Below, piece by piece: positions 4,141 to 29,525 of a DNA stretch of 64,000 nucleotides; position 1 is the first letter of the stretch; each line of letters opens with the position of its first letter. The position numbers and the translations under genes are program-made. Under the pieces are notes generated by a model. That model did not search any database. It saw only the letters and a program-made list of their open reading frames with translations, and was not told where the DNA came from. The DNA is from Candidatus Allofournierella merdavium (lineage in GTDB: Bacteria; Bacillota; Clostridia; Oscillospirales; Ruminococcaceae). The stretch spans positions 17,059 through 81,058 of the forward strand of contig DWYI01000049.1 in NCBI GenBank assembly GCA_019118765.1. The letters run 5' to 3'.

Positions 4141-4162
4141 AATGTAAGTTGTTGTCTGTCGA

Positions 4163-9957: not shown

Positions 9958-10024
9958 TCGGACAAAACGAAATATCAGGGGGCGGCGCGGTGCAGCGATA
10001 CACCGCGCCAGAATGGGAGAGCGT

Positions 10025-12725: not shown

Positions 12726-12740
12726 AAAAAGGAGCGAGCA

Positions 12741-14138: not shown

Positions 14139-14244
14139 TCTGGTGCCACATTGCAGTGTTTGACCGAAGAGCGTGATGTGGGAGCAAACAAAAAGTTCAA
14201 AACGCCGCAATCCGGGATTGCCTGGCGAAAGGAGAGCATTAACA

Positions 14245-15186
14245 ATGGAAAAAGACGCGAAGATCTATGTGGCCGGCCATCACGGTATGGTGGGTTCGGC
14301 GATCGTTCGTGAACTGCAGCGGCAGGGATACTCCAACATCGTTACAAGATCGCACAAGGAGCTTGATCTGTGCCGGCAGGAACAGGTGGAAGCTTTCTTC
14401 GAGCAGGAAAAGCCCCAGTACGTTTTCCTGGCTGCCGCGAAGGTGGGCGGCATTGTTGCAAACCAGGAAGCGCTGGCCGATTTCATGTATGAAAACATGA
14501 TCCTGGAGATGAACGTGATCCATGCCGCCTGGCAGAACGGCTGCAAAAAGCTGCAGTTTCTGGGGTCGTCCTGTATTTATCCCAAATTCGCGCCGCAGCC
14601 GATGAAGGAAAGCTGTCTGCTAACTTCCGCCCTGGAGCCGACAAACGAAGCCTACGCACTGGCGAAGATCTCCGGCCTCAAATACTGTGAGTATCTGAAC
14701 CGACAGTATGGAACAGACTATATTTCTGTCATGCCTACGAATTTGTATGGCCCGAATGACAACTATCATCCCACCCATAGCCATGTCCTTCCGGCGCTGA
14801 TTCGCAGGTTTCATGAAGCGAAGGTGGCCAATCTGCCTTCTGTTACCTGTTGGGGCGACGGCAGTCCGCTTCGGGAGTTTCTGTATGTGGATGATCTGGC
14901 AAACCTGTGTGTGTTTTTGATGAACAATTACAGTGGGAACGAAACAGTGAACGCGGGCACGGGTAAAGAGATATCCATCAAGGAACTGACTGAGTTGACC
15001 GCAAAAATTATTGGCTATACCGGCGATATCCTCTGGGACACTTCCAAGCCGAATGGAACGCCGCGCAAGTTGTTGGATGTATCCAAAAGCCGCGCACTGG
15101 GATGGAACTACAAGGTGGAATTGGAAGAGGGAATCAGGCGCACCTATCAAGACTTCCTGACAAACCCCATGCGCGCAGAGCGCTGA
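14245..15186 (+). CDS. fcl: GDP-L-fucose synthase (GDP-4-keto-6-deoxymannose 3,5-epimerase/4-reductase)
   Basis: [38 protein letters not shown] and NLYGPNDNY motifs typical of Fcl/WcaG. Track ORF trimmed to ATG 14245. Confidence 0.9.
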
Positions 15187-15252
15187 ATTGCGGTCGGGGG
15201 TAACACAGAACGAGGAATTTGAAAATTTGTACGATTAGGAGACATCAGAAAG

Positions 15253-16776
15253 ATGCGGATTGCGATTGATATGACTCCTGTGGTGGCAGGCGGTGCGAAC
15301 GGAGGCGTTCTGCCGCTCACGATCGAGACCATCAAGGGATTCAGACAATGGGAAAACACAGATGTTGTGTTGCTAACGTCCAGCACAAACCACGATCTGC
15401 TGTGCGACCTGGACAAATATGGCTGTAAGAGATTTTGCCTTACAGGCGAAGGCGGCCAGGTCATGCCGCTTGTATCACGCGACGCACCTTTGCCTGCCCC
15501 CTTAACCGCACAAGCACCGGTTTTGCCCATGCGGAGGGAGATGGCGCAGCGGCTGAAACGGAAGGCCAAGCAAGCGATAAAGCAGTATGCACCTTCTTGG
15601 TTCCTGCGCTTTGCAAAACGACACAAAGGCGGGATCAAAAAGATATTCTGGCGCTGTGTCCATCCGGTCAAGGGGCTTTTAAAGCCGTTGGCGCGATTTG
15701 TCATGCCTCATGGGGTGTATGTTCTGTACTCCACACGATGCGCTGAACGTGTGGCAGTCCAAACACAGATCGCGGCATCTGCCGCGGCTGCTTCAAAAGT
15801 GCGTGCTGAACCACAGTATGATGTTGATCGTTGTAACTTATCCGCTTTGATTGGGGAAAAGGTCGATGTTTTGTACTGCCCTTTTTCGGCGGTGAATTTT
15901 TACGATCCGCAAGTCGCGACAGTATCGGTGATCAATGATATACAACATGTATATTATCCGTTCTTTTTTGCGCCGCAGGAATTGGAAGCGCGGAAAGATT
16001 TCTATGACAAGCTGCTCCGGGTCCACCCCCAAATCGTGACCATTTCCGACTTTACCAAAAAAACGATCGTAGAAACGTATGGCTGTGCGGCAGAAACGGT
16101 CCAGACGATTTATCCATCCGTACAAAAGCGCCTTTCGGCTTTTACTGAAGAGGAAAAACAAGCGGCATTCCAGAAGTTTGGATTCAATAAACAGGGGTAT
16201 ATCATTTACCCGGCAAATTTCTGGAAACATAAGAATCATCCGATTTTGCTCACGGCCTTCCGAATGTACCTGGAAACCCACAGAGAATCGCCTCTCCAGC
16301 TTGTACTTACCGGATCCGCTGTGGATCAGGCAGAGGCGATGAAAACGCTGATTGATGGAAGCGGACTGGCCGACCGAGTACACCATTTGGGATATGTTGA
16401 GAACGTGGAACTGGCGGCTCTGATCTCAAACAGCAAATACCTCATTTTCCCCAGTTTGTTTGAAGGGTTTGGCATCCCGGTGGCGGAAGCGATGCAATTG
16501 GGGACCACAGTACTGTGTTCCAATTCAACTTCACTTCCCGAAGTTGGCGGCGACTGCGCATTTTACTTTGATCCGCGCACCCCGGAAAGCATTTTGAACT
16601 GTATGGAATTTGTGGATGAAAATCCTGCCGAAGTCAAAAAGAAGAAAGAGCGCTATCAAGAGCAACTCTCCAAATTTGATTTCGATGTATATATGGAAAA
16701 ATATAGAAAGCTCTTTGAATTATTGTGCAAGGAGAAACAGCCCGATGAAGCTATCAATTGTAACGCCCTCCTATAA
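15253..16776 (+). CDS. GT4 glycosyltransferase with an enlarged, basic N-terminal half
   Basis: C-terminal IFPSLFEGFGIPVAEAMQLGTTVLCSNSTSLPEV motif. The N-terminal domain carries a ~130-aa Pro/Ala- and Lys/Arg-rich insertion. Confidence 0.8.
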   Translation: MRIAIDMTPVVAGGANGGVLPLTIETIKGFRQWENTDVVLLTSSTNHDLLCDLDKYGCKRFCLTGEGGQVMPLVSRDAPLPAPLTAQAPVLPMRREMAQRLKRKAKQAIKQYAPSWFLRFAKRHKGGIKKIFWRCVHPVKGLLKPLARFVMPHGVYVLYSTRCAERVAVQTQIAASAAAASKVRAEPQYDVDRCNLSALIGEKVDVLYCPFSAVNFYDPQVATVSVINDIQHVYYPFFFAPQELEARKDFYDKLLRVHPQIVTISDFTKKTIVETYGCAAETVQTIYPSVQKRLSAFTEEEKQAAFQKFGFNKQGYIIYPANFWKHKNHPILLTAFRMYLETHRESPLQLVLTGSAVDQAEAMKTLIDGSGLADRVHHLGYVENVELAALISNSKYLIFPSLFEGFGIPVAEAMQLGTTVLCSNSTSLPEVGGDCAFYFDPRTPESILNCMEFVDENPAEVKKKKERYQEQLSKFDFDVYMEKYRKLFELLCKEKQPDEAINCNALL

Positions 16777-18760
16777 TCAGGGAGAATTTATCAAGGCGAC
16801 TATCGACAGCGTGCTGGGCCAGGGATACCCTGACCTGGAATATCTCGTTATGGATGGGGGAAGCACAGACTCCACGGTCTCCATTCTCAAGTCATATGGA
16901 GATAAAATCATCTGGGTCAGCGAGCCGGATGGCGGGCAGGCTGCCGCGGTAAACAAGGGGATTCTTGCGTCCACGGGAGACATCATCGGTTGGATCAACT
17001 CGGACGATATCTATTATCCGGGAACTTTCGAAACAGTAATGAAGGCGTTTGAGCAGCACCCGGAAGTAAATGTGATCTATGGGCACGCCGACCACATCAC
17101 TAAGGACGGAGCATATCTGGAGGATTATTACACTGAAAAGTGGAATTATGAACGGCTCAAGGAGATATGCTACATCTGCCAGCCAGCGGTGTTTTTTCGC
17201 AAAAAGACAGTGATGGAATGCGGCCTGTTAAACCCCGATCGCCATTTTGCGATGGATTATGATCTGTGGTTGCGGATGGGGAAAAGCAACGACTTCTATT
17301 TCATCGATAAGAAGTTTGCTGGTTCCCGCCTGTACCAGGAGAATAAAACACTCGGTTTCCGTGACAAAGTCTGTTATGATATTCTGGACACCGTGAAAGA
17401 AGTGACCGGTTCTGTGCCGATGCGGTGGCTGGAGGCGGGTGCCCATATGCTCAACGAAGGATATGAGCACAACGACCCCATTCTCCGGGAACGGACAGAG
17501 TATATTTCCCGGCTCATTGCTTCGGGGATGGATCTGAGCCTTAAGTATACGGGCAGGTTGCCCGCGACAAGGGAGGAACTCCCTTTGCGGGAAGTCCCGA
17601 TCAGAATTGGATATGATGTGAGCATTACCTGTGATTCGGGTGCCGGAGTCAGCCAATACACGCAGGCTTTGGCCGAAGGACTGTGCAGCATTGACCGGGT
17701 GAATCAGTATCTGTTTTATCCCTTGTTTAAAAACAGATACAGCGGAAACTATAAACAGTGTAAGATCCCCGCAAAGTCTCCGAATGCACAGATGATGTTT
17801 CGAAATAAATACCCGGTTGAGTATTATCAGTCGTTGTTTGATGCCCCTGGGCAGGATATCACGGAAGTATTGGGAACGCCGAATGTTGTCCATCACACTG
17901 GATTTTGCTATACAGATCAGCACAACGCGGCGAATGTTTATACTCTGTTTGATATGTCTTTCTTTGACTATCCCGATTGCACAACGGAAGCAAACAGAGT
18001 GTATTGTTATGAGGCGATGCAGCGCGCGGTCCTCAGCGCGGATGTGTTTGTGTCCATCTCCGAATACACAAAGCAGCGTTTCCTTCACTATTTTCCTTAT
18101 GTGGATGCAGATAAAATCAAGGTCGTTCCCCTTGCATGCCGGAAAACGCTGAAGGTGCCGGCCAATCCCGATCAGTGCCTGAAGGATATGGGGATCACGC
18201 CGGGAACGCCGTTCTGGCTGAGCGTGAACACCATCGAACCCCGTAAAAATATCAAAACATTGCTGAGAGCCTACAAAAAGCTGCGGGACAAGGGCGCGAC
18301 GTATCCTTTGTATCTTGCGGGTGGTCGCGGGTGGAAAAATCAAGCGATCTACGAAGAAGTGAAAGTCCTTGGGATCGAAGAATCTGTCCGCTTTTTGGGA
18401 TTTGTGGATGACAGGCACCTTTCGGCGCTGTATGCGTCTTGTTTCTGCTTTTTGTATCCTTCCGTGGATGAGGGCTTCGGCCTGCCGGTCCTGGAGTCGA
18501 TGACCTTGGGTGGTCCTGTCATCTGCAGCAATGTGGCAAGTCTCCCTGAGGTGGCGGGTCAGGCTGCGCTGTATGTGGATCCCGCAAATGTGGATACCAT
18601 AGTTGCTGCGATGGAAAAGGTTTCCAAGGACGAATCGCTGCGGCAGACGCTGATTCAACAGGGGAAGGAAAAAGCTGAGGACTTCTCTTGGGAGAAGACG
18701 GCTGAAAAAACGCTGATGAGCTATTACGAGGCGATTTGGCGACACAAACAAAACAAGTAA
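16745..18760 (+). CDS. two-domain glycosyltransferase (N-terminal GT2, C-terminal GT4)
   Basis: Track ORF trimmed to ATG 16745. N-terminus LSIVTPSYNQGEFIKATIDSVLGQGYPDLEYLVMDGGSTD (GT2). C-terminus EPRKNIKTLL and FLYPSVDEGFGLPVLESMTLGGPVICSNVASLPEV (GT4). Confidence 0.85.
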   Translation: MKLSIVTPSYNQGEFIKATIDSVLGQGYPDLEYLVMDGGSTDSTVSILKSYGDKIIWVSEPDGGQAAAVNKGILASTGDIIGWINSDDIYYPGTFETVMKAFEQHPEVNVIYGHADHITKDGAYLEDYYTEKWNYERLKEICYICQPAVFFRKKTVMECGLLNPDRHFAMDYDLWLRMGKSNDFYFIDKKFAGSRLYQENKTLGFRDKVCYDILDTVKEVTGSVPMRWLEAGAHMLNEGYEHNDPILRERTEYISRLIASGMDLSLKYTGRLPATREELPLREVPIRIGYDVSITCDSGAGVSQYTQALAEGLCSIDRVNQYLFYPLFKNRYSGNYKQCKIPAKSPNAQMMFRNKYPVEYYQSLFDAPGQDITEVLGTPNVVHHTGFCYTDQHNAANVYTLFDMSFFDYPDCTTEANRVYCYEAMQRAVLSADVFVSISEYTKQRFLHYFPYVDADKIKVVPLACRKTLKVPANPDQCLKDMGITPGTPFWLSVNTIEPRKNIKTLLRAYKKLRDKGATYPLYLAGGRGWKNQAIYEEVKVLGIEESVRFLGFVDDRHLSALYASCFCFLYPSVDEGFGLPVLESMTLGGPVICSNVASLPEVAGQAALYVDPANVDTIVAAMEKVSKDESLRQTLIQQGKEKAEDFSWEKTAEKTLMSYYEAIWRHKQNK

Positions 18761-18787
18761 TAAACTTTTACATGAGAGGACAAACAG

Positions 18788-20107
18788 ATGAAACGTTGCT
18801 GGTGCGGAAATGAGGCGTTGGAGGAGTACTCCTCCCAATATCGTGTTTGTACGAAGTGCCACACATTGGTTACCAAGTATGACGTGAACGACTCTCTGTA
18901 TAAAGTCTCGGATGAAGAGTCTGATTTTTACGGCGAGAATTATTGGGCAAAAGGGATGCTTGAGCTATCTGGACTGCCCAGCCTCAGTGCGCTGGTGGAC
19001 GCATACCTGCGTGGGCGCGTACCGTACTGGACGGAAAATGTTTTGAAATATGCAAAGCTTGGAGGATGTGTTGCGGAGGTCGGTTGCGGACTGGGTCAAT
19101 TGCAGTATGTGCTGAAAAGAATAGGATATCAACAGCTGGCCTATGAACTCAGCCCGGACATCTGCCGGTATATGGAGGATACCTTGGGTGTCTCTGCGCA
19201 CTGTGGCTCTTTTGAAAGAAGCGATAAACCATACGATGCCATCTTGGCGTTTGATTTGTTTGAACACCTGTTGGAGCCAGAGGAGTTTCTTTCAGCATGT
19301 GCCGATTCTCTGCAAACCGATGGTGTTTTGATGATGCAGACACCGTGCTATGATGCGGCGCTCAGCTATGATGAGATGCTGATTCAAAAGCCGCGCTTCA
19401 AGGAGCTTTTAAGGCCCGAACAACACTTGTACCTTTTCAGCCGCGAATCCATTGCTGAGATCCTTCACAAACACGGCTTTGTGAACGTCGTCTTCGAGCC
19501 GGCGTATTTCGGTGATGATTACGATATGTTCTTCGTGGCGTCCAAGGGTGAACTCTGCCAGAATACCAAGGACGAGATCGATGAGTATCTGAACCGGCAA
19601 GAGAACGGCCGCCTTGTCAAGGCAATGATCGCTTTGCAGGATGAAAACCGGGAGTGGGAGAAGAGGTATTTACAGGCGGATCGAGATCGGGAAGAGCGGC
19701 TGCACAATATGCAAAAACTGGAAGAACTGCTGCGGGTGAATGAAGCTGACCGTGAAGACAGGCTGAAACAGGCACAAACTCTGGAGCGGCGCCTGGAAGA
19801 AAGCGAGGCGGACCGGGCGGCACGGCTGGAGCAGGTGAAGATTTTGGAGCAGCGCCTGGAAAAAAGTGAGAGGGACCGGGCGGCACGGCTGGAGCAGATG
19901 AAGATTTTGGAGCGGCACCTGGAAGAAAGCGAGACGGATCGTGCGGCACGGCTGGAGCAGATGAAGATTTTGGAGCGGCGCCTGGAAGAAAGCGAGGCGG
20001 ATCGTGCGGCACGGCTGGAGCAGATGAAGATTCTGGAGCGGCGCCTGGAGGAAAGCGAAGCGGATCGGGCGGCAAGAAAAGGATGCAATACTGGAAATCC
20101 ATCTTAA
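18788..20107 (+). CDS. class I SAM-dependent methyltransferase fused to a C-terminal repeat coiled coil (candidate chain terminator / ruler)
   Basis: N-terminal CWCG..CTKCH knuckle. Methyltransferase motif I VAEVGCGLGQL, with ILAFDLFEHL and DGVLMMQTP. From about residue 285 a charged heptad-compatible helix ends in tandem LEESEADRAARLEQMKILERR units. Confidence 0.75.
   Translation: MKRCWCGNEALEEYSSQYRVCTKCHTLVTKYDVNDSLYKVSDEESDFYGENYWAKGMLELSGLPSLSALVDAYLRGRVPYWTENVLKYAKLGGCVAEVGCGLGQLQYVLKRIGYQQLAYELSPDICRYMEDTLGVSAHCGSFERSDKPYDAILAFDLFEHLLEPEEFLSACADSLQTDGVLMMQTPCYDAALSYDEMLIQKPRFKELLRPEQHLYLFSRESIAEILHKHGFVNVVFEPAYFGDDYDMFFVASKGELCQNTKDEIDEYLNRQENGRLVKAMIALQDENREWEKRYLQADRDREERLHNMQKLEELLRVNEADREDRLKQAQTLERRLEESEADRAARLEQVKILEQRLEKSERDRAARLEQMKILERHLEESETDRAARLEQMKILERRLEESEADRAARLEQMKILERRLEESEADRAARKGCNTGNPS
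19793..20074 (+). repeat. in-frame tandem repeat: four 63-bp units plus one 30-bp partial unit
   Basis: Units start at 19793, 19856, 19919 and 19982, with a partial unit at 20045. By manual alignment units 3 and 4 differ at 2 of 63 positions. More diverged 21-aa units lie upstream. Confidence 0.95.
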
Positions 20108-20260
20108 ATTGGTGAAGTGATCACGAACAGCCATGGAATAACATGATTGAACGACACTGGCTGAAATGATTGAAATGCAACTGCTATAAGAGTATCTGCC
20201 AAGCGCATAGGAGATGGGGGTTTCAAAAGGTATCTGCATTAAGACGAGGAGTGATTTCTG

Positions 20261-22465
20261 ATGTTTGAACTGACGCAAATTCTTTACTATATTGGATGTA
20301 CGCTTGGGACGCTCTTGATTGGAAGTCCCGCGGTTCTTCTGTTGCACCGTGATGGGGCCAAGATTTTTCATCCGAAGTCATGGTTCATGGGAACAACAAT
20401 TATAATGTTGCTTTGTTACTGGATGAGTATGTTCGGAATTCCGATGAAGCAGGCATGGCTGATTGTCGCTGCGCTGTCTTTGATTGTGTGGATTATAGTT
20501 TGGAAGCGCAGGCTCAAGGGAAAAGATTCTTTGTTTGTTGAAAAACAAACAAGGGGTTTGTTGGTGCTTTGTTTTATTGCCGGATCGCTGGCGCTTATAC
20601 CCATGATTGTGTTTAAAGCGTGTTTCCTGTACGGTGATATGTATACCTATGTAAGCATTGCTGATTACCTGCTCCAACATGGCTATGGAAGCACAGTCTC
20701 ATTGGATCCATATTCACCATGGCTGTCACAAGTTTTGCTGTATCAAAGTCATGGGTTTCGGATGGGAGCACAATTTTTCCTCTCGTTTTGGACAGCGGCT
20801 CTGCAGCAAGAGTTTTCCGTTTTTGTTTACTCGCCGGCATCGGCCTTTGGAATCAGCTTGTATGGCATGGCCGTGTGGGAATTTACACAGTCGGTTTGGA
20901 AACTTAGTCCGCGACGGGTAGCCTATGCGGTGATCTTTTCGGCGTTTAATATTCCGTTTGTGATTTGGAGCGCCGTATATGGCTTCTTCCCTCAATTGCT
21001 GGGGCTTGCGTTTTTCATAATGGCTCTCGGAACAGTGGTAAAACTGCTTGTTCACCATCAGAAGTTTTCCGTGTTGGACTATGTAGAGGGTAGCTTGTGG
21101 ATTGCCTCCATGGCGTTTTGCTATAGTGAAGTTGTGCCGTTCTTTGTGGTTTTTACTTCTGTTCTGTATTTTACACAGAACAGGAGTAAAAAGGCGTTTT
21201 TGCAGGGGTTTAAATCATTGGCACTGATTGCGGTATTTAGCCTGACCGTATTGGGAAAGTATGCCATTGAAATGTTTGGTTCAATCATTACAATGATGGG
21301 AGCTGCGGTAGGCTGGGAGCAACGATTGAACTGGATAGGATATCTGGCTTGTTGGTTCTCTTCCGCGCCAGTGCAGTATAACTTTGTTGATGCCCAATAT
21401 CCATTAGTACCACATACTGTGTTTGTCACAGCTACGATTATTATGCTGGCACTGCTGGTATATGGACTGTGCGTTCACAAAAGTGATTCAAAAACAAAGC
21501 ATCTGACAATAGGTGCAATCCTTGCAATCCCATTGCTTCTCTTCCTGGTTTACTTTGGTAATATAGCAGAAAATCCGTTTGGCAATGGGTATGGGAACTC
21601 GTGGTCAGTGTTTAAGTTGGCGCAATACGCATTCCCTGTTATAGGCTGCTTTCTGTTTCCTTACTTTGCGGATGTTTTTCAAGGAGGCGGCCTGATAAAG
21701 CGTAGCCTTTCGATTGCGTTTCCCAGCGTCTTTTGCGTAGTGGGGTTGATGCATGCCGTTCTCTATTCCGATAGCGTTACCGAATCAATGAGAAAATATA
21801 CAAACTACGCGGAAAATCCCATTATGGCTTATATAGACATAGCAAAGCATTATGAGGGTGAAACAAGAGTCCTCAACTTACTTGGTTTTGATGAACATCA
21901 AAGTGAGAGAAAAATCCTTACCTACTTTTTGCGCGGAAATAAACTTGCCTCTGACTGGAGCAGCGACGGGTATTTTTCTCTTTACAAAAATAAAGATCCG
22001 GAGATTGTATCGGACGGCTTGTTTTTGATTTATGACCCCAAGGCAACGGAGCCGATGTTAAAACTCACAGAAATGACAGCGGAGAACTGTGTCTTGATGG
22101 AGGAAAACTATGGCGTCGGCGGTACAGAAAATTCTGCCGAGAATGTGAGTTGGACATGGAATGAATCTGAAAGCCAGTACGCAGTCACAAATTATTCAGT
22201 GAAAGAATCTGTCCTTTTGTCGGCGGAACTGGCAAATGCAAGCGCGATTCCTGGCGCTAGTGTGGATGTATACCTGAACGACCAGCTCATTCAAACCGTG
22301 GAACTTATCCCTGCACAGCGCATACCTTTTTCTGCCAATCTGAAGATCCCATCCGGGACTACTACCTTGGTGAAATTTGTGTACCATGGCGAATCGGTTC
22401 AGGAGCCGGGCGGCCAGCGGACTTTGAATTTGGGCATTTGGAACATCGCTTGCACTGTTTCTTGA
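20261..22465 (+). CDS. large polytopic membrane protein with a C-terminal soluble domain (GT-C-like glycosyltransferase or oligosaccharyl/ligase-type enzyme; family not resolved)
   Basis: 734 aa with many hydrophobic helices over the first ~500 aa. An early loop carries GDMYTYVSIADY. The ~230-aa hydrophilic C-terminal part is beta-rich in appearance. RBS gaggag. AT-rich codon usage. Confidence 0.55.
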   Translation: MFELTQILYYIGCTLGTLLIGSPAVLLLHRDGAKIFHPKSWFMGTTIIMLLCYWMSMFGIPMKQAWLIVAALSLIVWIIVWKRRLKGKDSLFVEKQTRGLLVLCFIAGSLALIPMIVFKACFLYGDMYTYVSIADYLLQHGYGSTVSLDPYSPWLSQVLLYQSHGFRMGAQFFLSFWTAALQQEFSVFVYSPASAFGISLYGMAVWEFTQSVWKLSPRRVAYAVIFSAFNIPFVIWSAVYGFFPQLLGLAFFIMALGTVVKLLVHHQKFSVLDYVEGSLWIASMAFCYSEVVPFFVVFTSVLYFTQNRSKKAFLQGFKSLALIAVFSLTVLGKYAIEMFGSIITMMGAAVGWEQRLNWIGYLACWFSSAPVQYNFVDAQYPLVPHTVFVTATIIMLALLVYGLCVHKSDSKTKHLTIGAILAIPLLLFLVYFGNIAENPFGNGYGNSWSVFKLAQYAFPVIGCFLFPYFADVFQGGGLIKRSLSIAFPSVFCVVGLMHAVLYSDSVTESMRKYTNYAENPIMAYIDIAKHYEGETRVLNLLGFDEHQSERKILTYFLRGNKLASDWSSDGYFSLYKNKDPEIVSDGLFLIYDPKATEPMLKLTEMTAENCVLMEENYGVGGTENSAENVSWTWNESESQYAVTNYSVKESVLLSAELANASAIPGASVDVYLNDQLIQTVELIPAQRIPFSANLKIPSGTTTLVKFVYHGESVQEPGGQRTLNLGIWNIACTVS

Positions 22466-22829
22466 TGCCCGCGAAATCAACTGCAAGATTTGTTTCAATG
22501 AATAAGATTGTGATTTTTGAAGAGGACACTTTCATCCACCTTGTATCCTTGCCTACAGTTTGTCATATGGCGGAAGTGGCTTCAGCCCCTACTTGTACTT
22601 TTGATTCCAAAACATGAAAAGAATACGTTTCATTTTTGAAGCGCATACTACGATTACAATTTCCAAACAGGTCATTTATGAGTTTTCCCATATAAATATC
22701 ATCATCGTTAAGTGAGCATAAGGGGCTAATTTCTTGTTCGGTTGAGAATCTATGAAATGCCCGTATTGGTAGCGAGCTATTCACAATGTGGTGTTAGCCA
22801 TCATCGAATAAAACGAGGAGGACGCAAAA

Positions 22830-23612
22830 ATGAAAGCAGTTATTCTTGCGGGTGGTTTTGGCACCCGAATTTCAGAGGAAAGCCAATTTAAACCCAAGCC
22901 CATGGTGGAATTGGGAGGCATGCCGATCCTGTGGCACATCATGAAGCTGTATGGCCATTATGGCATCAACGAGTTTGTGATTTGCGCCGGTTACAAACAA
23001 CATGTGATTAAAGAGTATTTTGCCGATTATTTCCTGCATACTTCGGATATCACCTATGACTTTACCCATGGCAGAAATGAGATGATTGTGCATTACAACA
23101 CCTCGGAGCCTTGGAAAGTTACGGTGGTGGACACCGGCCTTAACACCATGACCGGCGGCCGGGTGAAGAGGATCCGCGACTATATGGACAATGAGCCCTT
23201 CATGTTGACCTACGGCGACGGCGTGGCCAACATTAATATCCAGGAGCTGCTGGATTTCCACCGCGCCCATGGCAAGATGGTTACCATATCCGCTTATAAC
23301 GCAGGCCAGCGGTTTGGTGTGCTGGACATCGATGGACAGGGCCGGATTACTGAATTCCGGGAAAAAACGCAGGGCGACGGCAACATGATCAATATTGGTT
23401 ATATGGTGTGCCAACCGGAATTCATTGATTACATCCAGAATGACAGCACCGTGCTGGAAAAGGAGCCCCTGGAGCGAGTTGCAAAGGAAGGCCAGCTGAT
23501 GGCCTACAAACACACTGGGTTCTGGCAGTGCATGGATACAATGCGAGAAAAGGAACAGCTGGAAAAAATGTGGGCGGCCGGACGTGCCCCTTGGAAAGTG
23601 TGGGAAGACTGA
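22830..23612 (+). CDS. rfbF: glucose-1-phosphate cytidylyltransferase
   Basis: MKAVILAGGFGTRISEES..KPKPMVELGGMPILWHIMK..YGHYGINEFVICAGYK is characteristic of RfbF/DdhA. Confidence 0.93.
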   Translation: MKAVILAGGFGTRISEESQFKPKPMVELGGMPILWHIMKLYGHYGINEFVICAGYKQHVIKEYFADYFLHTSDITYDFTHGRNEMIVHYNTSEPWKVTVVDTGLNTMTGGRVKRIRDYMDNEPFMLTYGDGVANINIQELLDFHRAHGKMVTISAYNAGQRFGVLDIDGQGRITEFREKTQGDGNMINIGYMVCQPEFIDYIQNDSTVLEKEPLERVAKEGQLMAYKHTGFWQCMDTMREKEQLEKMWAAGRAPWKVWED

Positions 23613-24682
23613 TGGATTATTTGAATCTGGAGTTTTATCAGGGGAAAAAGATCTTTGTGACCGGGCATACTGGCTTCAAAGGCACCTGGCTGTGCCATAT
23701 GTTGGCGCTTGCCGGCGCGCAGATCACTGGCTATTCGCTCCCTGCGCCCACGCAGCCCAATCTGTTTGAGCTTTCCGGCCTGGAAAGCAAAATGACCTCG
23801 GTCATTGGCGACGTGCGGGATCGCGAAAAGCTGATGGAGATTTTTCGCAAGGCACAGCCGGAGATCGTTTTGCATCTGGCGGCGCAGCCCATCGTGCGCG
23901 ACAGCTACAAGGATCCGGCCTTTACTTACGAGACCAACGTGATGGGCACGGTCAATCTGTTGGAGTGCGTGCGCAGCGCACAGGTACCTGTGCGCTCGGT
24001 GGTGAACGTCACCACCGATAAGGTCTATCTGAACCGGGAATGGTGTTGGGGCTACCGGGAGGACGAGATGCTGGATGGCTACGACCCCTACTCCAATTCT
24101 AAATCCTGTTCGGAATTGGTGACCCACAGCTATTGCCACAGCTTTTTCAACACCGAGGATGCGCCGGCCGTCTCAACGGCGCGGGCGGGCAATGTGATTG
24201 GCGGCGGCGACTTTGCGAATGACCGCATTATTCCCGACTGTGTGCGCGCTGCTGTGTCGGGGCAGACCATCGCCGTGCGCAATCCCTATTCCACTCGTCC
24301 TTACCAGCATGTGCTGGAACCCCTGTTTGCCTACCTGATGATTGCACGCATGCAGTATGAGGACAAGCGTTATGCCGGCTGGTATAATGTGGGCCCGGAC
24401 GATTGCGACTGTGTCACTACAGGTGAATTGACAGATTTGTTCTGCGAAGAGTGGGGCGCACCAGCTTGCTGGCAAACGCAGGCAGAGCAAAACGCACCGC
24501 ACGAGGCAAATTTTTTGAAACTTGACTGCACAAAACTGAAATCTACGTTTGGCTGGAAACCTCGCTGGCACATCCGAGAGGCGGTCGCCCAAACTGTTGC
24601 ATGGAGCAAGGTTTGGTGTGCTGGCGGGAGTATTCCAGACGAAATGGACCGAGAGATTAAAACATTCCAAAAGGAAGACTAA
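23612..24682 (+). CDS. rfbG: CDP-glucose 4,6-dehydratase
   Basis: Start overlaps the rfbF stop. KKIFVTGHTGFKGTWL, PYSNSKSCSE and RAGNVIGGGD motifs typical of RfbG/DdhB. Confidence 0.9.
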   Translation: MDYLNLEFYQGKKIFVTGHTGFKGTWLCHMLALAGAQITGYSLPAPTQPNLFELSGLESKMTSVIGDVRDREKLMEIFRKAQPEIVLHLAAQPIVRDSYKDPAFTYETNVMGTVNLLECVRSAQVPVRSVVNVTTDKVYLNREWCWGYREDEMLDGYDPYSNSKSCSELVTHSYCHSFFNTEDAPAVSTARAGNVIGGGDFANDRIIPDCVRAAVSGQTIAVRNPYSTRPYQHVLEPLFAYLMIARMQYEDKRYAGWYNVGPDDCDCVTTGELTDLFCEEWGAPACWQTQAEQNAPHEANFLKLDCTKLKSTFGWKPRWHIREAVAQTVAWSKVWCAGGSIPDEMDREIKTFQKED

Positions 24683-24694
24683 GGGGATCGTTCG

Positions 24695-25627
24695 ATGAAA
24701 AAATTGATAACCGTTGTGGTGCCAACATTTAATGAGGAACTCAACGTGGAAAACGTGTGGCAGCGAGTTACGAATATTATGAACAAGCAACTGCCACAAT
24801 ACGATTATGAGATTTTGTATGTAGATAACTGCTCGTTGGATAGGACGCAGGAAATCATTTCCGCCTTGGCAGAAAAAGACAGTCACGTTAAGGCCATTTT
24901 CAATGCACGGAACTTCGGGTATGTAAAGAACGTATACTACGCGATAACGCAGGCGAAAGGTGACTGCGCATTCCTGCTCCATGCAGACTTGCAGAATCCC
25001 CCTGAAATGCTGGTGGAGTTTGTCCAATATTGGGAGGAAGGCTATAAGGTCATTGCGGGCGTGAAGAAAAGCAGCAAAGAAAACAAATTGCTGTTTGCCG
25101 CAAAAGGAATGTACTATCACCTGATGAAGAAAATTTCCGATTCGGAGATGATCGAGCAGTTAACAGACTTTGGCCTCTATGATCGGAAATTCCTGGATGT
25201 GTTAAAGAATCTGGATGATACTTTACCCTATTTTAAGGGAATCGTTTCAGAGCTTGGCTTTGACCTGAAGATAGTCGAGTTTGACCAGAATGACCGGGAA
25301 AAAGGGAAATCATTTACCAACTTTTTCAAAAGCTATGACTACGCAATGCTGGGCATCACAACATATACCAAGCTGATCCGCGCTGCAAGCTGGGCTGGTT
25401 TGCTTTTGGGGATCTTGTGTGTTGTAATCGCTGTCATCACATTCGTGCTGAAATTACTCAACTGGGCTTCCTTCCCCACAGGTGTAGCGGCAATTTGCAT
25501 AGGCGTGTTTTTCATTGGAGCAATCCAGCTGTTCTTCCTGGGGCTGCTGGGCGAATATGTGATCTGTATCAACACAAGGCTTCTGCGGCGGCCGCTGGTA
25601 ATTGAAGAAAAGAGGATTCATTATTGA
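24695..25627 (+). CDS. GT2 polyprenyl-phosphate glycosyltransferase (GtrB/CsbB/ArnC-like)
   Basis: N-terminal VVVPTFNEE GT2 fold, plus two C-terminal TM helices and a LGEYV..RRP tail, as in GtrB/DPM1-like lipid-carrier glycosyltransferases. Confidence 0.8.
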   Translation: MKKLITVVVPTFNEELNVENVWQRVTNIMNKQLPQYDYEILYVDNCSLDRTQEIISALAEKDSHVKAIFNARNFGYVKNVYYAITQAKGDCAFLLHADLQNPPEMLVEFVQYWEEGYKVIAGVKKSSKENKLLFAAKGMYYHLMKKISDSEMIEQLTDFGLYDRKFLDVLKNLDDTLPYFKGIVSELGFDLKIVEFDQNDREKGKSFTNFFKSYDYAMLGITTYTKLIRAASWAGLLLGILCVVIAVITFVLKLLNWASFPTGVAAICIGVFFIGAIQLFFLGLLGEYVICINTRLLRRPLVIEEKRIHY

Positions 25628-25631
25628 AATC

Positions 25632-26822
25632 ATGAAATATGATGTAATCGTTGTTGGAGCAGGCTTTACAGGCAGTGTTATTGCCAGACAGCTGTCGGAT
25701 CGCCTAAACATGAAGTCTCTCATCATCGAAAAAAGAAACCACATTGCGGGCAATATGTACGACAAAACCATTGGCAACAATATTTTCGTACATATGTACG
25801 GCCCTCATTCCTTTTTTACGGACGAAAAATGGATTGTAGGGTATATTAAAAAGTTCGCGGAATGGAAAGATCTGGATGTAACCGCCGAGGTGGAAATAGA
25901 CCATAAGCTGTATTCTCTTCCATTTGGGTTTTCTTTTATTCGCGAGTATTATCCATCTGAACAAGCTCAGGCCCTTATCGGCAAATTGCAGGAAGAATTC
26001 CCGGGGGAAGAGCGGGTCACTATTTTTGAACTGCTGAACAGCAAGGAGCCAGCTGTTGTAGAATTTGCCAAGATGTTGTGCGAAAAGGACTATTACCCTT
26101 ACAGCTCCAAACAGTGGGGGATCCCTATGGATAAAATGGATCCCAGCGTGATTGGAAGGGTCAAATTCGCGCTCTCTGAAGACAACCGATATATCCAGCA
26201 AAAATATCAGCTAACCCCTGTTGAGGGCTTTACGGCATTTTTTGAGAAATTGCTGGATTCTCCGAACATTACTGTCATCAAAGAGACGGACGCCCTGGAA
26301 TATCTGGAATTCTGTGCCTCGGATCACACAGTTCGATTTTTCTGGAATGGAACAACATACAATTGCCCGGTGGTGTTCACCGGACCGATCGATGAACTGT
26401 TTGGATGCCAATATGGGGCACTGCCATACAGGTCGCTTGAAATTCAGTTCGAGTCGTTTGAGCAGGACAGCTATCAGGACGTTCCATTTATTTCCTATCC
26501 ACAGGCGGACGGCTACACAAGGATTGTCGAGTATAAGAAATTGACAGGCCAAGAGAATGAAAAGGGAACAGTCATATCGGTGGAGTATCCGGAACAATAT
26601 GCAAAAGGAAAGAATCTGCCCTATTATCCCATTATTAACGCGCCAAATTTGACTTTGTATGACCGTTATCACAAGCTTGCAAGCGAATATAAGAATTTGT
26701 TTGTATGTGGGCGGCTTGGCGACTACAAATACTACAATATGGATGCCGCAATTGTTCGTGCAATGGAAGTGGAAAGGCAGATCGAAGAATATCTTTGCAA
26801 AGAAAACAGCGAGGAACGATAG
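25632..26822 (+). CDS. UDP-galactopyranose mutase family flavoenzyme (nucleotide-sugar pyranose/furanose mutase; substrate uncertain)
   Basis: YDVIVVGAGFTGSVIA FAD loop, EKRNHIAGNMYD, YGPHSFFT and GRLGDYKYYNMDAAI motifs typical of Glf/UGM. Confidence 0.8.
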   Translation: MKYDVIVVGAGFTGSVIARQLSDRLNMKSLIIEKRNHIAGNMYDKTIGNNIFVHMYGPHSFFTDEKWIVGYIKKFAEWKDLDVTAEVEIDHKLYSLPFGFSFIREYYPSEQAQALIGKLQEEFPGEERVTIFELLNSKEPAVVEFAKMLCEKDYYPYSSKQWGIPMDKMDPSVIGRVKFALSEDNRYIQQKYQLTPVEGFTAFFEKLLDSPNITVIKETDALEYLEFCASDHTVRFFWNGTTYNCPVVFTGPIDELFGCQYGALPYRSLEIQFESFEQDSYQDVPFISYPQADGYTRIVEYKKLTGQENEKGTVISVEYPEQYAKGKNLPYYPIINAPNLTLYDRYHKLASEYKNLFVCGRLGDYKYYNMDAAIVRAMEVERQIEEYLCKENSEER

Positions 26823-26823
26823 T

Positions 26824-27387
26824 ATGGCATTCGCTTTTGAAAACACTCCAATTGATGGAGTGATCCTGATTCATTCGCACACGTATTTTGATGACAGAGG
26901 TTTGTATAAAAAGGTCTACGAGAAAAACGTATTTCAAGAAGCAGGCATTCGGGTGGAGTTTACGGAGACCAGCGACCTTTATTCCCAAAAAGGCGCATTG
27001 CGGGGTCTGCACTATCAGACGAACTATTCCCAGGCTAAACTGATTCATGTGGTCACAGGGATTATTTTTGATGTCGCTTTGGATCTTCGCCGGGAGTCCA
27101 GAACATTTGGCAAGTACTTTGCAACACTGTTAAAGCCGGAAGATCACTGCGCCGTGTATATCCCCGAAGGTTTCGCGCATGGCTTCATCACGCTGAGTGA
27201 TGAGGCAATATTCTCCTACCAATGTTCGGGGAAATACGATCCTGCTTCTTGCGGAGGGATTTTGTGGAACGACCCCGATTTGGGTATTCCCTGGCCGCTG
27301 AAAGAGTATGGCGTGGATAGAGTTATCTGCACCGACAAAGATAAAAGCTGGCCGACGTTCAAAGAGTATTGTTCTGCAATGAGGTAA
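26824..27387 (+). CDS. RmlC-like cupin nucleotide-sugar 3,5- (or 5-/3-) epimerase
   Basis: Track ORF trimmed to ATG 26824. DDRG, GALRGLHYQ, QAKLIHVVTGIIFDVALDLR and PEGFAHGF match the dTDP-4-dehydrorhamnose 3,5-epimerase fold. Confidence 0.85.
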   Translation: MAFAFENTPIDGVILIHSHTYFDDRGLYKKVYEKNVFQEAGIRVEFTETSDLYSQKGALRGLHYQTNYSQAKLIHVVTGIIFDVALDLRRESRTFGKYFATLLKPEDHCAVYIPEGFAHGFITLSDEAIFSYQCSGKYDPASCGGILWNDPDLGIPWPLKEYGVDRVICTDKDKSWPTFKEYCSAMR

Positions 27388-27395
27388 TGGATGGT

Positions 27396-28397
27396 ATGAA
27401 AAAAGTTCTTCTGACAGGGGCAACAGGATTCATTGGAAGGAACCTTGTGAAGGAATTATTGCTGCATGATGTGGAGATTATCGCCGTTGTTCGGGAAGAA
27501 CATGAGCAGCAGAAAACACAGTGGAGACTAGAGAAGAACATTCGACTGGTATACTGTGACTTGGAACATTATTCTCGTTTGCCGCAGCTGATCGCTGACC
27601 GGGACATAGATGTGGCATACCATTTGGCATGGAGAGGTGTTTCAGGGCCGGATTTGCGCGATGCCGCCCTGCAGATCGCGAACATTGAAGGAACATTGGA
27701 GCTGATCCATGCTCTTTCTCAAATGAATTGCCGGTCATTTGTTGGCGCGGGCAGTCTTCACGAGATAGAAAGCTTTTACGAAATGGCGGAAGATAAGCCA
27801 ATCAGTAATTTGGGCTACATGTATAAGGCGGCAAAACTATCGGCACATTGGATGGGTAAAGCGTTAGCTGGCTCCAAGGGCCTGCGTTTCTTCTGGCCGA
27901 TCGTTTCTAACGCATACGGAGATGGCGAAAACTCCAAAAGACTGATTAATTCTATCATAAGAGAGATGATGGAAGGCAAACAGCCCGCGCTGTCGCCAGG
28001 AAAACAAAACTATGATTTTGTATACATCAGTGATGTTGCACATGCTTTCTATCTGATCGGTGAGTATGGTGTTGACGGGACAAACTATTTCATTGGCTCT
28101 GGAAAAGTCAGGCCTCTAAAAGAGTATCTCCAAAAAGTGGGGGATATGGTCAATCAGGCTAACGGCACGAATGTAGAATTAGGGTTTGGAAAAATACAAG
28201 CAAATGTTGTTTATTTGCCTGAAGAAGTTTTCAGTATTGAAACATTAGAAAAAGACACTGGCTTTATCCCAAAGGTTAGTTTTGAAGAAGGAATAAAACG
28301 GACCATAGCTTGTATACAAGATGAGATGACCGAAAAAGCGGGGGCCCATGAACGGTGTTCACTGACTCAGAGCGAAACAGAAGTCCCGGGAGCATAA
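27396..28397 (+). CDS. NAD(P)-dependent SDR epimerase/reductase (probable nucleotide-sugar 4-ketoreductase)
   Basis: VLLTGATGFIGRNL Rossmann loop and YKAAK catalytic motif. The start could instead be ATG 27387. Confidence 0.75.
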   Translation: MKKVLLTGATGFIGRNLVKELLLHDVEIIAVVREEHEQQKTQWRLEKNIRLVYCDLEHYSRLPQLIADRDIDVAYHLAWRGVSGPDLRDAALQIANIEGTLELIHALSQMNCRSFVGAGSLHEIESFYEMAEDKPISNLGYMYKAAKLSAHWMGKALAGSKGLRFFWPIVSNAYGDGENSKRLINSIIREMMEGKQPALSPGKQNYDFVYISDVAHAFYLIGEYGVDGTNYFIGSGKVRPLKEYLQKVGDMVNQANGTNVELGFGKIQANVVYLPEEVFSIETLEKDTGFIPKVSFEEGIKRTIACIQDEMTEKAGAHERCSLTQSETEVPGA

Positions 28398-28579
28398 GGG
28401 AATGAATAGGAACGCCCTAAAAAGGCGGAGATTGTCACAGACAGAAACAACTGAACGCGGTGTCGGCTGAGGTACGATACCCACTGTGAAGGGTGTCTGG
28501 ATGGGAATATACTTGGCCGGACGGGTAGTGTCAAGAGTTTTGCGCCAATTTGTTTGCAGTTTCTGGCATGATGAAGTCG

Positions 28580-29454
28580 ACCAGCAATGGAGGTATCCTC
28601 AACAGTAGCCTCCAGATGCTTCATGTCCATATATTTCTTAGCCCCACAGGGTATGACTACAAGGCGTGGTCGGGCACAGACCAGCATAAGGGCAGAGTTA
28701 GCGTCCAGGAACCGCCCAACAAAGAGTGCAGCAGTGGATCTCACGGTTCGGCTGTTCAATGACATTGTTGGTGCGGATGGAGTCCAGTGCTTGCTGGAAA
28801 AATCGCAGCAGATCAGCACTTCCTCGACGCTATTTTCCACCTTCTTGGCGCCCCCCTGTCAGTTTCATGGAATGAAGTTCTTCTTCGATCACAGCTTTGA
28901 GCTTCTCACAGGCTGCTTTCTTGCCCCTCTGGGCGTGAATCGCTTTGAGCACTTTGGCTACCAGCTTAACCTTAGAGAGGTGTAACCGAGAGCACTTTAC
29001 AATAGAAGAGGACGGTACACTGTGGGCATTTGGGCTGGGAAAACACTTCTCCCACAGCCTCCAACATACCAAGGCACTTGTCGTCAACAAAGAGCTTCGC
29101 GCCATCCGGGTCATGGCTACGCAGCCGTTGGAAGAAACTGACCCAACTGGCCTTGCCCCCTTTCATGCCCTCGGCGGCGCCCGGAACCTCTCGATATCTG
29201 TCTTCATCTACCGTAACCGCCACAAGAATAGCCTGATTTTTAAACTCTTTGCCCCGGTTGCGGCGCAGGCAGATGCCATCCGTGCAGACATACGGATGCC
29301 GCCCTCCTTGCAAGGGGCGGCTCCGCCAATCCTCAATGTGGACACACGCTTTCTTATTTAACTCACGGATGGTAGATGGGGATGCTTTGCTTCCCCACAG
29401 GGCCTCGGTAATATCCTCTACACGCCGCTGGATCGGATAACGAACCGATGCCAT
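28580..29454 (-). pseudogene. IS256-family (mutator-type) transposase remnant, 5'-truncated and frameshifted
   Basis: Three consecutive minus-strand frames (28972-29454, 28830-29114, 28367-28840) together read like an IS256 transposase. Matching segments include RRVEDITEALWG, ILVAVTVDEDRYREV, KASWVSFF, KVLKAIHAQ, TMSLNSRTVR and NSALMLVCAR. About 100 N-terminal residues are missing. The left end of the element is not definable. Confidence 0.8.
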
Positions 29455-29475
29455 GATGGAGCAGGCTTTTTGGGG

Positions 29476-29525
29476 ATACAGAACGACGGGCGCACCGCAA
29501 AAGCGGTGCGCCCGTCGTTCTGTAT
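29476..29525. terminator. 23-bp perfect hairpin with AAAA loop between convergent units
   Basis: atacagaacgacgggcgcaccgc / aaaa / gcggtgcgcccgtcgttctgtat. A T-rich tract follows on the + strand. It sits 8 nt from the stop of the minus-strand gene. Confidence 0.7.

Follow-up and report, generated by a model that had tools for sequence, protein, structure and literature searches.

A predicted CDP-6-deoxyhexofuranose pathway coupled to a GtrB-type glycosyltransferase and a candidate GT-C enzyme in a gut Clostridia polysaccharide locus

Introduction

In Campylobacter jejuni HS:41, soluble glycosyltransferases build 6-deoxyhexofuranoses into the capsule repeat unit. The five-enzyme pathway that supplies these sugars, HS41.21 to HS41.17, was reconstituted in vitro by Simons, Narindoshvili and Raushel (Biochemistry 2025; PMC12369002); its products are CDP-D-fucofuranose as well as CDP-6-deoxy-L-altrofuranose, furanoses that end up in the capsule repeat unit, and HS41.17 was characterised as a CDP-sugar pyranose/furanose mutase. 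Escherichia coli O52 resembles the locus described here in pathway logic, with a 4,6-dehydratase, a C4 reductase and a Glf-like mutase acting in turn on a 6-deoxyhexose. Its dTDP-D-fucofuranose is reportedly made by RmlA, RmlB, the Fcf1 reductase and the Fcf2 mutase, and the system differs in using dTDP rather than CDP and in lacking both an epimerase and a lipid-carrier GT2. In Yersinia enterocolitica O:8, a route to CDP-6-deoxy-D-gulose is said to involve WbcA (PDB 5buv). Yersinia pseudotuberculosis O5b/O11 carries alpha-L-6dAltf side branches (PMC8533242). The Yersinia systems likewise present CDP-glucose-derived 6-deoxyhexoses as glycan side branches without 3-deoxygenation, but their Wzx/Wzy O-units are made in the cytoplasm, and WbcA, the sole sequence compared, scores 91 bits against the epimerase studied here.

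In three-component extracytoplasmic glycosylation, a GtrB-type polyprenyl-phosphate GT2 and a GT-C enzyme act together on an already completed glycan beyond the membrane and modify it there. Such systems include GacI/L (S. pyogenes), CsdAB (lactococci) and gmlABC (Klebsiella), the last of which modifies a glycan exported by an ABC transporter. Shigella GtrA/B/C and pentofuranose systems also belong to this group, and the GtrB-type enzymes described use UDP-hexoses (PMC11127046). The GtrB-type donors described so far are UDP-hexopyranoses, and the described lipid-linked furanoses (Ribf, Araf) derive from PRPP via another synthase. We know of no GtrB-type enzyme that uses a CDP-sugar or a furanose. 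Here we analyse a 64 kb stretch of DNA (the window) from Candidatus Allofournierella merdavium, in which the predicted donor is a CDP-6-deoxyhexofuranose.

Results

Organization of the locus

Six co-directional ORFs occupy positions 22830-28397 of the + strand (Table 1) in the order rfbF-rfbG-GT2-mutase-epimerase-reductase, and genes called independently on the contig of origin concur. Because the rfbG start lies on the rfbF stop codon (TGATG overlap) and the remaining junctions are gaps of 12, 4, 1 and 8 nt, the six genes form one operon. A membrane protein of GT-C fold, beginning upstream at 20261, is probably the first member of the functional unit. The window also holds a Wzm/Wzt polysaccharide locus, which encodes several GT4/GT2 enzymes (e.g. 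15253-16776 and 16610-18760); the locus contains no GtrA- or ArnE/F-like flippase gene, a difference from the three-component systems that was counted against a lipid-carrier reading.

The original prediction placed rfbF and rfbG here together with a cupin epimerase, an SDR reductase and a UGM-family flavoenzyme, interleaved with a lipid-carrier GT2, and these assignments are borne out by TIGR02623 and TIGR02622 scores above the cut-offs and by Pfam matches. RfbG carries GHTGFKG and YSNSK motifs. The reported absence of ddhC and ddhD from the locus also holds, and in the whole 64 kb tblastn returned no DdhC/DegT-like sequence (best E-value 0.23); PF01041 had no match among the window ORFs scanned. 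A 3,6-dideoxyhexose (ddh/rfb) pathway, which requires DdhC (E1, PMP-dependent, DegT family) and DdhD (E3), was rejected. The sequences support a module that would constitute a CDP-glucose branch without 3-deoxygenation, ending in a pyranose-to-furanose mutase.

Table 1. Features of the CDP-sugar module and its upstream membrane protein (window coordinates)
Feature	Position	Strand	Evidence
734-aa polytopic membrane protein, candidate GT-C glycosyltransferase	20261..22465	+	AF2 model and Foldseek; no Pfam match
rfbF, glucose-1-phosphate cytidylyltransferase	22830..23612	+	TIGR02623 equivalog, 390 bits (cut-off 300)
rfbG, CDP-glucose 4,6-dehydratase	23612..24682	+	TIGR02622 equivalog, 435 bits (cut-off 278)
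GtrB/ArnC-type polyprenyl-phosphate glycosyltransferase (GT2, C-terminal transmembrane hairpin)	24695..25627	+	PF00535
Glf-family FAD mutase, predicted CDP-6-deoxyhexopyranose/furanose mutase	25602..26822 (alternative ATG 25632)	+	PF03275, 198 bits
RmlC-family cupin epimerase, predicted substrate CDP-4-keto-6-deoxy-D-glucose	26824..27387	+	PF00908, 192 bits; TIGR01221, 195 bits
Extended SDR, predicted C4 ketoreductase (NAD(P)H-dependent)	27396..28397	+	PF01370, 134 bits

Comparison with the HS:41 pathway

The module shares with HS:41 a glucose-1-phosphate cytidylyltransferase, a CDP-glucose 4,6-dehydratase, an RmlC-fold epimerase, an SDR C4-reductase and an FADH2 Glf-family mutase in a single cluster, here in a Gram-positive Oscillospiraceae host rather than Campylobacter. 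Identities to the HS:41 enzymes are 50% for RfbF (HS41.21), 42% for RfbG (HS41.20), 42% for the mutase (HS41.17) and, over 145 aa, 36% for the epimerase (HS41.19), whereas the SDR is not orthologous to HS41.18, which it matches at 23% identity (47 bits). With counterparts for all five soluble enzymes, and with the block syntenic in dozens of species, the proposed conversion of a CDP-activated 6-deoxyhexose to its furanose form is supported, and a CDP-6-deoxyhexose pathway with a CDP-specific mutase is highly probable. The chemistry is no longer unprecedented, as the earlier statement that no CDP-sugar mutase had been biochemically defined is overtaken by the 2025 characterisation of HS41.17 (PMC12369002).

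The best PDB match of the epimerase is RmlC 1ep0 (174 bits); that this dTDP-type enzyme outscores both HS41.19 and the CDP-sugar epimerase WbcA was counted against the pathway reading. The SDR carries GATGFIG and YKAAK (YxxxK) motifs, belongs to no equivalog-level NCBIfam family and has no close characterised relative in the family and PDB comparisons, its best PDB match being 2pk3, a GDP-4-keto-6-deoxymannose reductase (57 bits). It is 59% identical to its counterpart in locus L001 and 37-41% identical to the reductases of epimerase-containing CDP blocks. Its function class is likely that of HS41.18; because it is neither orthologous to that enzyme nor close to another characterised one, homology does not fix the C4 stereochemistry or the epimer captured. 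The sugar-pocket residues of the mutase differ as well, so the sugar may be another than that of HS:41.

A candidate nucleotide signature in the mutase

The window mutase is closer to HS41.17 (41.8% identity, 298 bits, full length) than to the Dr, Kp and Ec UDP-galactopyranose mutases (UGMs; 32-33%, 184-229 bits). In common with UGM (Glf, EC 5.4.99.9) it has the fold, the motif that binds FAD and the residues contacting flavin and diphosphate (H85, Y179, W184, R198, Y209, R305, E325, Y335, R364 and Y370, Dr numbering), and it scores 378 bits against the UGM equivalog TIGR00031 (cut-off 304); a covalent flavin-N5 mechanism is expected. A comparison of uridine contacts, as the original prediction had suggested, was run with residue roles as tabulated in PMC3624792 (Table 3) and PMC3322874 (Table 2), namely Dr F175 and N296 and Kp N270 for uracil and H109/N84 for Gal. 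Dr F175 and N296 mark positions that hydrogen-bond uracil in UGMs (Table 3, PMC3624792), whereas the window enzyme has Asp and Ser at these positions and Val for the galactose contact H109, and so lacks the uracil-bonding and Gal-binding residues of a UGM sensu stricto. HS41.17 shares the Asp and has Ala at the N296 position, and the H109/N84 position is Val or Leu, which fits a 6-deoxy sugar.

Across the loci compared, Asp at the F175 position tracks the rfbF/G context, occurring in 40 of 46 loci with these genes versus 1 of 34 without them (Fisher p = 3.6e-15). Judged from these alignments, Glf-family mutases appear to read the nucleotide at a single position, by Asp versus Phe, Val or Ala. 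The synteny survey placed RfbF and/or RfbG within 10 kb of the mutase in 41 of its 80 best relatives (GTDB species genomes), most commonly in the order rfbF-rfbG-SDR-RmlC-mutase, and dozens of species from many genera have members of the mutase clade within rfbF/rfbG operons. In a crude neighbour-joining tree, the window mutase and HS41.17 fall in the same deoxysugar-linked superclade, and a separate basal clade without deoxysugar genes retains the UGM-like Asn and His. Within the sugar pocket, the window subclade departs from the HS41.17 clade (H88 to F, F210 to I, V268/T294 to F), which was counted against the proposed pathway. In public annotation, these gut Firmicutes mutases are named 'UDP-galactopyranose mutase'.

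The interleaved GT2 and the upstream membrane protein

The GT2 aligns over its full length with GtrB (5ekp; 143 bits; query 5-303 against 28-325) and with ArnC (92 bits; query 3-302), and has the GtrB-type architecture of a GT2 catalytic domain followed by a C-terminal membrane hairpin. Its best NCBIfam matches are PgfS and ArnC, with PgfS at 181 bits falling far under the cut-off of 500. The motif at residue 96 is HADLQ, in which His replaces the first Asp of DxDxQ and the second Asp and Gln are kept; DxDxQ is the hallmark of GtrB-type polyisoprenyl-phosphate glycosyltransferases, and its first Asp lies outside binding distance (PMC10821137).

Close homologues of the GT2 occur on the same contigs as close homologues of the mutase. 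For each of the four GT2 homologues looked up (56-71% identity), a Glf-family mutase directly adjoins the gene in a CDP block and a large membrane protein without family assignment lies alongside. The GT2 clade is also found beside Glf-family genes in loci L001, L002, L004, L021, L054 and L083, and the pairing of GT2 with a membrane protein recurs in the dTDP-type sister clade of mutases; about 25 of the 41 CDP blocks have no GT2 within 10 kb. The GT2 is a dedicated partner of Glf-family mutases in CDP blocks and not incidental to them. Its presence had been recorded correctly in the original prediction, which missed the lipid-carrier link given by these adjacencies and by the GT-C-fold protein upstream. 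The five pathway genes described for HS:41 (PMC12369002) include neither the GT2 nor that protein. From its context, the GT2 is predicted, with rather better than even confidence, to make Und-P-6-deoxyhexofuranose; the UDP-hexose donors of the GtrB-type enzymes described were counted against this.

The upstream 734-aa protein has about 12 hydrophobic segments and a C-terminal beta-sandwich domain that resembles CBM6/35/36 in Foldseek. Its AF2 model (pLDDT 81, pTM 0.82) was searched against the PDB, where the best 16 matches are all GT-C (PglB at 2e-5, STT3, AftD, EmbA/B and DPY19; E 2e-5 to 4e-3) and ArnT ranks 32nd (E 1.5e-2); the TM-scores are low, at ~0.3-0.4, and were counted against the assignment. 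The modelled fold is that of GT-C, making the protein a candidate GT-C enzyme whose donor would be a lipid-linked sugar on the outer side of the membrane. Its family is rare; of the 10 homologues, one (39% identity) adjoins the same CDP/GT2/mutase block in L083 and others lie inside Wzm/Wzt loci (L085, L086). As a possible counterpart of the acidic catalytic residue that GT-C enzymes have in an extracytoplasmic loop close to the N-terminus, D126, invariant in the 10-sequence alignment, is placed by the model in the loop after helix 95-117.

Discussion

In the pathway that we propose, RfbF would produce CDP-D-glucose, which RfbG would dehydrate to CDP-4-keto-6-deoxy-D-glucose. Next, the RmlC-like enzyme would epimerise next to the keto group, the SDR would reduce C4 to give a CDP-6-deoxyhexopyranose, and the Glf-family mutase, with reduced flavin, would contract the ring, giving the CDP-6-deoxyhexofuranose. 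If HS:41 is taken as the model, this sugar is most likely 6-deoxy-L-altrofuranose, or D-fucofuranose where the epimerase is skipped. The adjacent GT2 would move the furanose onto undecaprenyl phosphate and, once the lipid-linked sugar is flipped, the GT-C-fold protein would attach it, as a side branch, on the Wzm/Wzt-exported glycan of the locus; whether that protein transfers the 6-deoxyhexofuranose to this glycan we regard as evenly balanced. What the analysis shows is which families the proteins belong to, their homology to characterised enzymes, the conservation of synteny, the residue signatures of the active sites and the GT-C fold. The substrates and stereochemistry, as well as the acceptor and the lipid-linked intermediate, are what we infer, and the scheme as a whole, from CDP-6-deoxyhexofuranose through an Und-P donor to GT-C decoration of the Wzm/Wzt glycan, we consider moderately likely. 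It predicts an undescribed variant of extracytoplasmic glycosylation.

The original prediction had allowed that the mutase might be an ordinary UDP-galactopyranose mutase located here by chance. The operon itself would then make a CDP-6-deoxyhexopyranose, with a product such as the 6-deoxy-D-gulose proposed for Y. enterocolitica O:8. The TIGR00031 score above cut-off and the full set of flavin and diphosphate contacts would suit such an enzyme, but the uracil-bonding and Gal-binding positions are all altered, Asp is associated with the CDP context, HS41.17 is a nearer relative than the solved UGMs, the clade keeps its synteny with rfbF/rfbG in many genera and is separate from that with UGM-like Asn/His, and spacing to the neighbouring genes is just 1-4 nt; we rejected this very improbable explanation. 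It is also unlikely that a CDP-6-deoxyhexofuranose is used in the cytoplasm by conventional glycosyltransferases, such as the GT4/GT2 enzymes of the locus, with the GT2 loading another sugar or the pyranose form. The HS:41 furanoses are indeed part of a capsule repeat unit, several GT4/GT2 enzymes are encoded in the locus, known GtrB-type enzymes take UDP-hexoses (PMC11127046), and many CDP blocks lack a nearby GT2; yet here just 12 and 4 nt separate the GT2 from rfbG on one side and the mutase on the other, its clade adjoins Glf-family genes in all four reciprocal look-ups and in the further loci listed above, and the dTDP-type sister clade shows a parallel pairing with a membrane protein.

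If a lipid-linked sugar is made, it could instead be destined for surface proteins or a teichoic-acid-type polymer, in a Pgf-like or CsbB/YfhO-like system. The best NCBIfam match of the GT2 is PgfS, which we take to be part of the S. mutans protein-glycosylation system, and the protein glycosyltransferases PglB, STT3 and DPY19 are among the top fold matches of the 734-aa protein. Against such targets, the window, L085 and L086 each have this protein or a homologue within a Wzm/Wzt polysaccharide locus, and its C-terminal domain resembles carbohydrate-binding modules, making the alternative improbable. Decoration of the Wzm/Wzt glycan is the reading we retain.

The core chemistry is already known; what is new and testable is the Asp residue signature and the repeated coupling to a GtrB-type enzyme and GT-C-fold proteins. 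More tentatively, at a little under an even chance, these operons, which are common among gut Clostridia, might make the first lipid-phosphate-linked hexofuranose donors, through a GtrB-type enzyme acting on CDP-6-deoxyhexofuranose, a new GT-C family, a non-Campylobacter sugar and a single Asp for Phe that switches UDP to CDP. The non-orthologous reductase and the altered sugar pocket of the mutase would set this sugar apart from the Campylobacter products. The 2025 Campylobacter pathway is no oddity and occurs widely in Firmicutes of the human and animal gut. If true, the GtrB/GT-C coupling would bring CDP-derived hexofuranoses into the scope of three-component extracytoplasmic glycosylation, and rare furanose side branches of this kind are likely to determine how phages and antibodies recognise abundant gut commensals.

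Composition of the module

At 22830–28397, six co-directional, tightly packed open reading frames lie on the + strand, with rfbF and rfbG overlapping at TGATG and later gaps of 12, 4, 1 and 8 nt. Both RfbF and RfbG, whose presence was part of the original prediction, score above their family cut-offs, and profile assignments for the remaining genes agree with the cupin epimerase, SDR, Glf-like flavoenzyme and GT2 that it described. A 3,6-dideoxyhexose pathway with ddhC/ddhD elsewhere in the window was rejected: the absence of these genes, initially noted for the locus, extends to any DegT/DdhC-like sequence throughout the 64 kb. The module is thus confirmed by profile assignments, gene packing and this absence. 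A promoter and terminator scan of 20000–29500 gave the same counts as shuffled sequence, and operon boundaries therefore carry no usable promoter or terminator signal.

Features of the module and its surroundings (lengths of the six module genes agree with independent gene calls on the source contig)
Feature	Position	Strand	Length (aa)	Evidence or remark
RfbF		+	260	TIGR02623, 390 bits (cut-off 300), profile search
RfbG		+	356	TIGR02622, 435 bits (cut-off 278), profile search
GT2		+	310	Profile search
Glf-family flavoenzyme	25602–26822	+	406	PF03275, 198 bits
RmlC-family cupin		+	187	PF00908, 192 bits
Extended SDR		+	333	Profile search
Membrane protein	20261–22465		734	Directly 5′ of rfbF
ManC, Gmd, two Rmd-like SDRs, Wzm, Wzt	within 7664–20107			Gmd, 525 bits; Wzt with Wzt_C carbohydrate-binding domain
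Fcl-like enzyme	within 7664–20107			482 bits, slightly below cut-off 500
GT4/GT2-GT4 enzymes, methyltransferase	within 7664–20107		439 (methyltransferase)	
ORF within polysaccharide locus	6510–7772		420	No match in Pfam or NCBIfam
Mutator-family transposase remnants	28972–29454			Additional ORF, 28367–28840
tRNA-Pro(GGG)	49357–49433			Single, in high-GC flank

Relationship to the HS:41 pathway

The original prediction combined a CDP-6-deoxyhexofuranose interpretation with the view that CDP-sugar mutases were still biochemically undefined. That view is outdated, because the C. jejuni HS:41 pathway has been reconstituted (Simons, Narindoshvili and Raushel, Biochemistry 2025; PMC12369002), comprising the cytidylyltransferase HS41.21, the CDP-glucose 4,6-dehydratase HS41.20, the 3,5-epimerase HS41.19, the NADPH-dependent C4-reductase HS41.18 and the mutase HS41.17, with a mutase equilibrium reported as unfavourable. 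Compared with these proteins, in the order listed and with sequences from the supplement of that paper, the window proteins show identities of 50, 42, 36, 23 and 42%. The interpretation itself was right in substance, as borne out by this homology and by rfbF/rfbG synteny: the module core belongs to the HS:41-type pathway, and its product would be a CDP-6-deoxyhexofuranose. The window module differs from the HS:41 pathway in its predicted integrated lipid-carrier arm and in a reductase that, at 23% identity, is not orthologous to HS41.18. These two features, together with an Asp that may read the nucleotide, appear to be what is new here.

Mutase specificity

We also weighed the alternative that the mutase is a stray UDP-galactopyranose mutase (UGM) co-located by chance. 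By BLASTP, the window enzyme shares 41.8% identity with HS41.17 (298 bits), whereas its matches to the UGMs of D. radiodurans, K. pneumoniae and E. coli reach only 32–33% (184–229 bits). The synteny survey proposed at the outset, which screened a single genome for each GTDB species and took the best 80 loci, placed RfbF and/or RfbG within 10 kb of the mutase in 41 of them, usually in the order rfbF-rfbG-SDR-RmlC-mutase; hosts of the mutase-relative loci include Clostridia, Mucispirillum, Treponema and Negativicutes. In a neighbour-joining tree, a UGM-like clade without deoxysugar context is basal, and a large deoxysugar-linked superclade comprises: (i) HS41.17 and the majority of CDP loci, (ii) the window plus L002, L003 and the Acetatifactor locus L001, which has this six-gene set, and (iii) RmlA/RmlB-linked loci.

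UGM ligand-contact roles (PMC3322874, PMC3624792) were then transferred via alignment. This comparison of uridine contacts, likewise envisaged originally, showed that both uracil positions in the window mutase differ from those of UGMs. At the position of D. radiodurans F175, L001–L003 all have Asp (3/3), with Ala in 24/25 dTDP-linked and Val in 8/8 context-free mutases, and Asp coincides with rfbF/rfbG context (40/46 loci versus 1/34; Fisher p = 3.6e-15). Closer similarity to HS41.17, synteny, clade placement and altered uracil and galactose contacts together led us to reject a chance UGM in favour of a CDP-type mutase, in which the Asp carboxylate may read the 4-amino group of cytosine. Because all flavin and diphosphate contacts of UGMs are kept in the alignment, the enzyme should be catalytically active.

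Residues at UGM ligand-contact positions (Dr, D. radiodurans; Kp, K. pneumoniae numbering)
Position	Role in UGM	Window	HS41.17	Large CDP clade
Dr F175	H-bond to uracil (PMC3624792)	Asp	Asp	Asp 43/44
Dr N296	H-bond to uracil (PMC3624792)	Ser	Ala	Ala 41/44
Dr H109 (Kp N84)	H-bond to Gal	Val	Leu	Leu 37/44

Identity of the sugar

The window reductase, which is without a characterised close relative, is nearest to reductases of epimerase-containing CDP blocks (37–41%, and 59% for L001), and epimerase-less blocks mostly use another reductase type (29–32% identity to that of the window). Such epimerase-less RfbF-RfbG-SDR-mutase(-GT2) blocks occur at L004, L015, L021, L066, L069, L088 and L089, and would be expected to give only a non-epimerised product, e.g. 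of the D-fucofuranose type. Substitutions in the mutase sugar pocket (H88 to F, F210 to I, V268/T294 to F) set the window subclade apart from the HS41.17 clade. As a search for stereochemical clues from the reductase and epimerase turned up neither an equivalog nor a closely related solved structure, the stereochemistry is left at analogy, with 6-deoxy-L-altrofuranose as the default sugar. It is only a default because the reductase is non-orthologous and the mutase sugar pocket altered, and another epimer is quite possible.

A predicted lipid-carrier arm

Matches of the GT2 to GtrB (5ekp, 143 bits) and ArnC span the whole protein and take in the membrane hairpin, and HADLQ stands in the place of the DxDxQ hallmark. 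Judged from gene neighbourhoods, it is a dedicated partner of CDP-block mutases, because 68–98% GT2 homologues share contigs with 60–93% mutase homologues, and all four of the more distant homologues examined (56–71%) directly adjoin a Glf-family gene within RfbF-(RfbG)-SDR-(RmlC) blocks. All four of these loci also have a neighbouring 615–661-aa membrane protein without family assignment. The 734-aa membrane protein of the window has no match in Pfam or NCBIfam; its confident structure model (pLDDT 81, pTM 0.82), with a CBM-like C-terminal domain, marks it as a candidate GT-C glycosyltransferase, the best 16 PDB fold matches all being GT-C enzymes. Its family is rare, with a 39% homologue adjoining the CDP/GT2/mutase block of L083 and further homologues within Wzm/Wzt loci. 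BLASTP against the large GT2-adjacent membrane proteins of L001, L002, L012 and L083 (L083_663) found no similarity, and these are therefore separate families that cannot be pooled.

The GT2–mutase partnership and the GT-C-like protein lead us to predict a three-component extracytoplasmic system using a CDP-derived furanose, in which, as throughout the module, we infer every substrate. The GT2 would transfer the furanose to undecaprenyl phosphate, this loading step would draw the unfavourable mutase equilibrium forward, and, on the outer side of the membrane, the GT-C enzyme would link the sugar to the glycan exported by Wzm/Wzt. A survey from the Whitfield laboratory holds only UDP-hexose GtrB types and PRPP-derived pentofuranoses among such systems (PMC11127046), and we found no literature description of one based on CDP or a hexofuranose. 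No GtrA/ArnEF-type flippase was found, and the + strand at 11850–28397 is taken up by the genes described here, leaving no room. In L089, two small EamA-family genes (7951–8624; 115 and 109 aa) lie directly 3′ of the GT2, the only such pair among the GT2 loci examined; they resemble ArnE/ArnF, the pair that flips Und-P-L-Ara4N, whereas the window locus has no equivalent gene.

Surrounding locus

A LysR protein in the flank falls into a cluster, at 90% identity or more, with proteins bearing the name Candidatus (Allo)Fournierella, which makes the host a Gram-positive gut Oscillospiraceae bacterium. Its locus runs from a WcaJ-type initiating transferase, GT4s, ManC, Gmd and the Rmd-like SDRs, through Wzm, Wzt, the Fcl-like enzyme, further GTs and the methyltransferase, to the 734-aa protein. 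The part at 7664–20107 looks like an ABC-transporter glycan locus with many GDP-derived 6-deoxyhexoses, the glycan probably bearing a methyl cap read by Wzt. The module forms the 3′ end of an island of 45–52% GC (about 12–29 kb; 12000–29500) in a genome of 60–67% GC; the island stops at the transposase remnants, and the L001 copy adjoins a phage-type integrase, which together suggest that the polysaccharide locus received its variable half by horizontal transfer.

Implications for the Glf family

A dTDP-linked sister clade of the window mutase accounts for 25 of the 80 loci (L012 at 3124–13499, L006, L013, L022, L024, L057, L060, L061, L075 and others), with Ala in place of the CDP-type Asp. 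Its operons open with a large membrane protein, a GtrB-like GT2, an NDP-hexose 2,3-dehydratase and a GFO/IDH 3-ketoreductase, and continue with an RmlC-like epimerase, SDR, Glf-like mutase, RmlA and RmlB. This gene order predicts a dTDP-2,6-dideoxyhexofuranose passed to a lipid carrier, of which we know of no description. On the window mutase, TIGR00031, the NCBIfam 'equivalog' for UDP-galactopyranose mutase, reaches 378 bits, above its cut-off of 304, and all public named homologues carry the same label. Since this is a mutase in a CDP context, the Glf family is likely to be systematically over-annotated as UDP-galactopyranose mutase.
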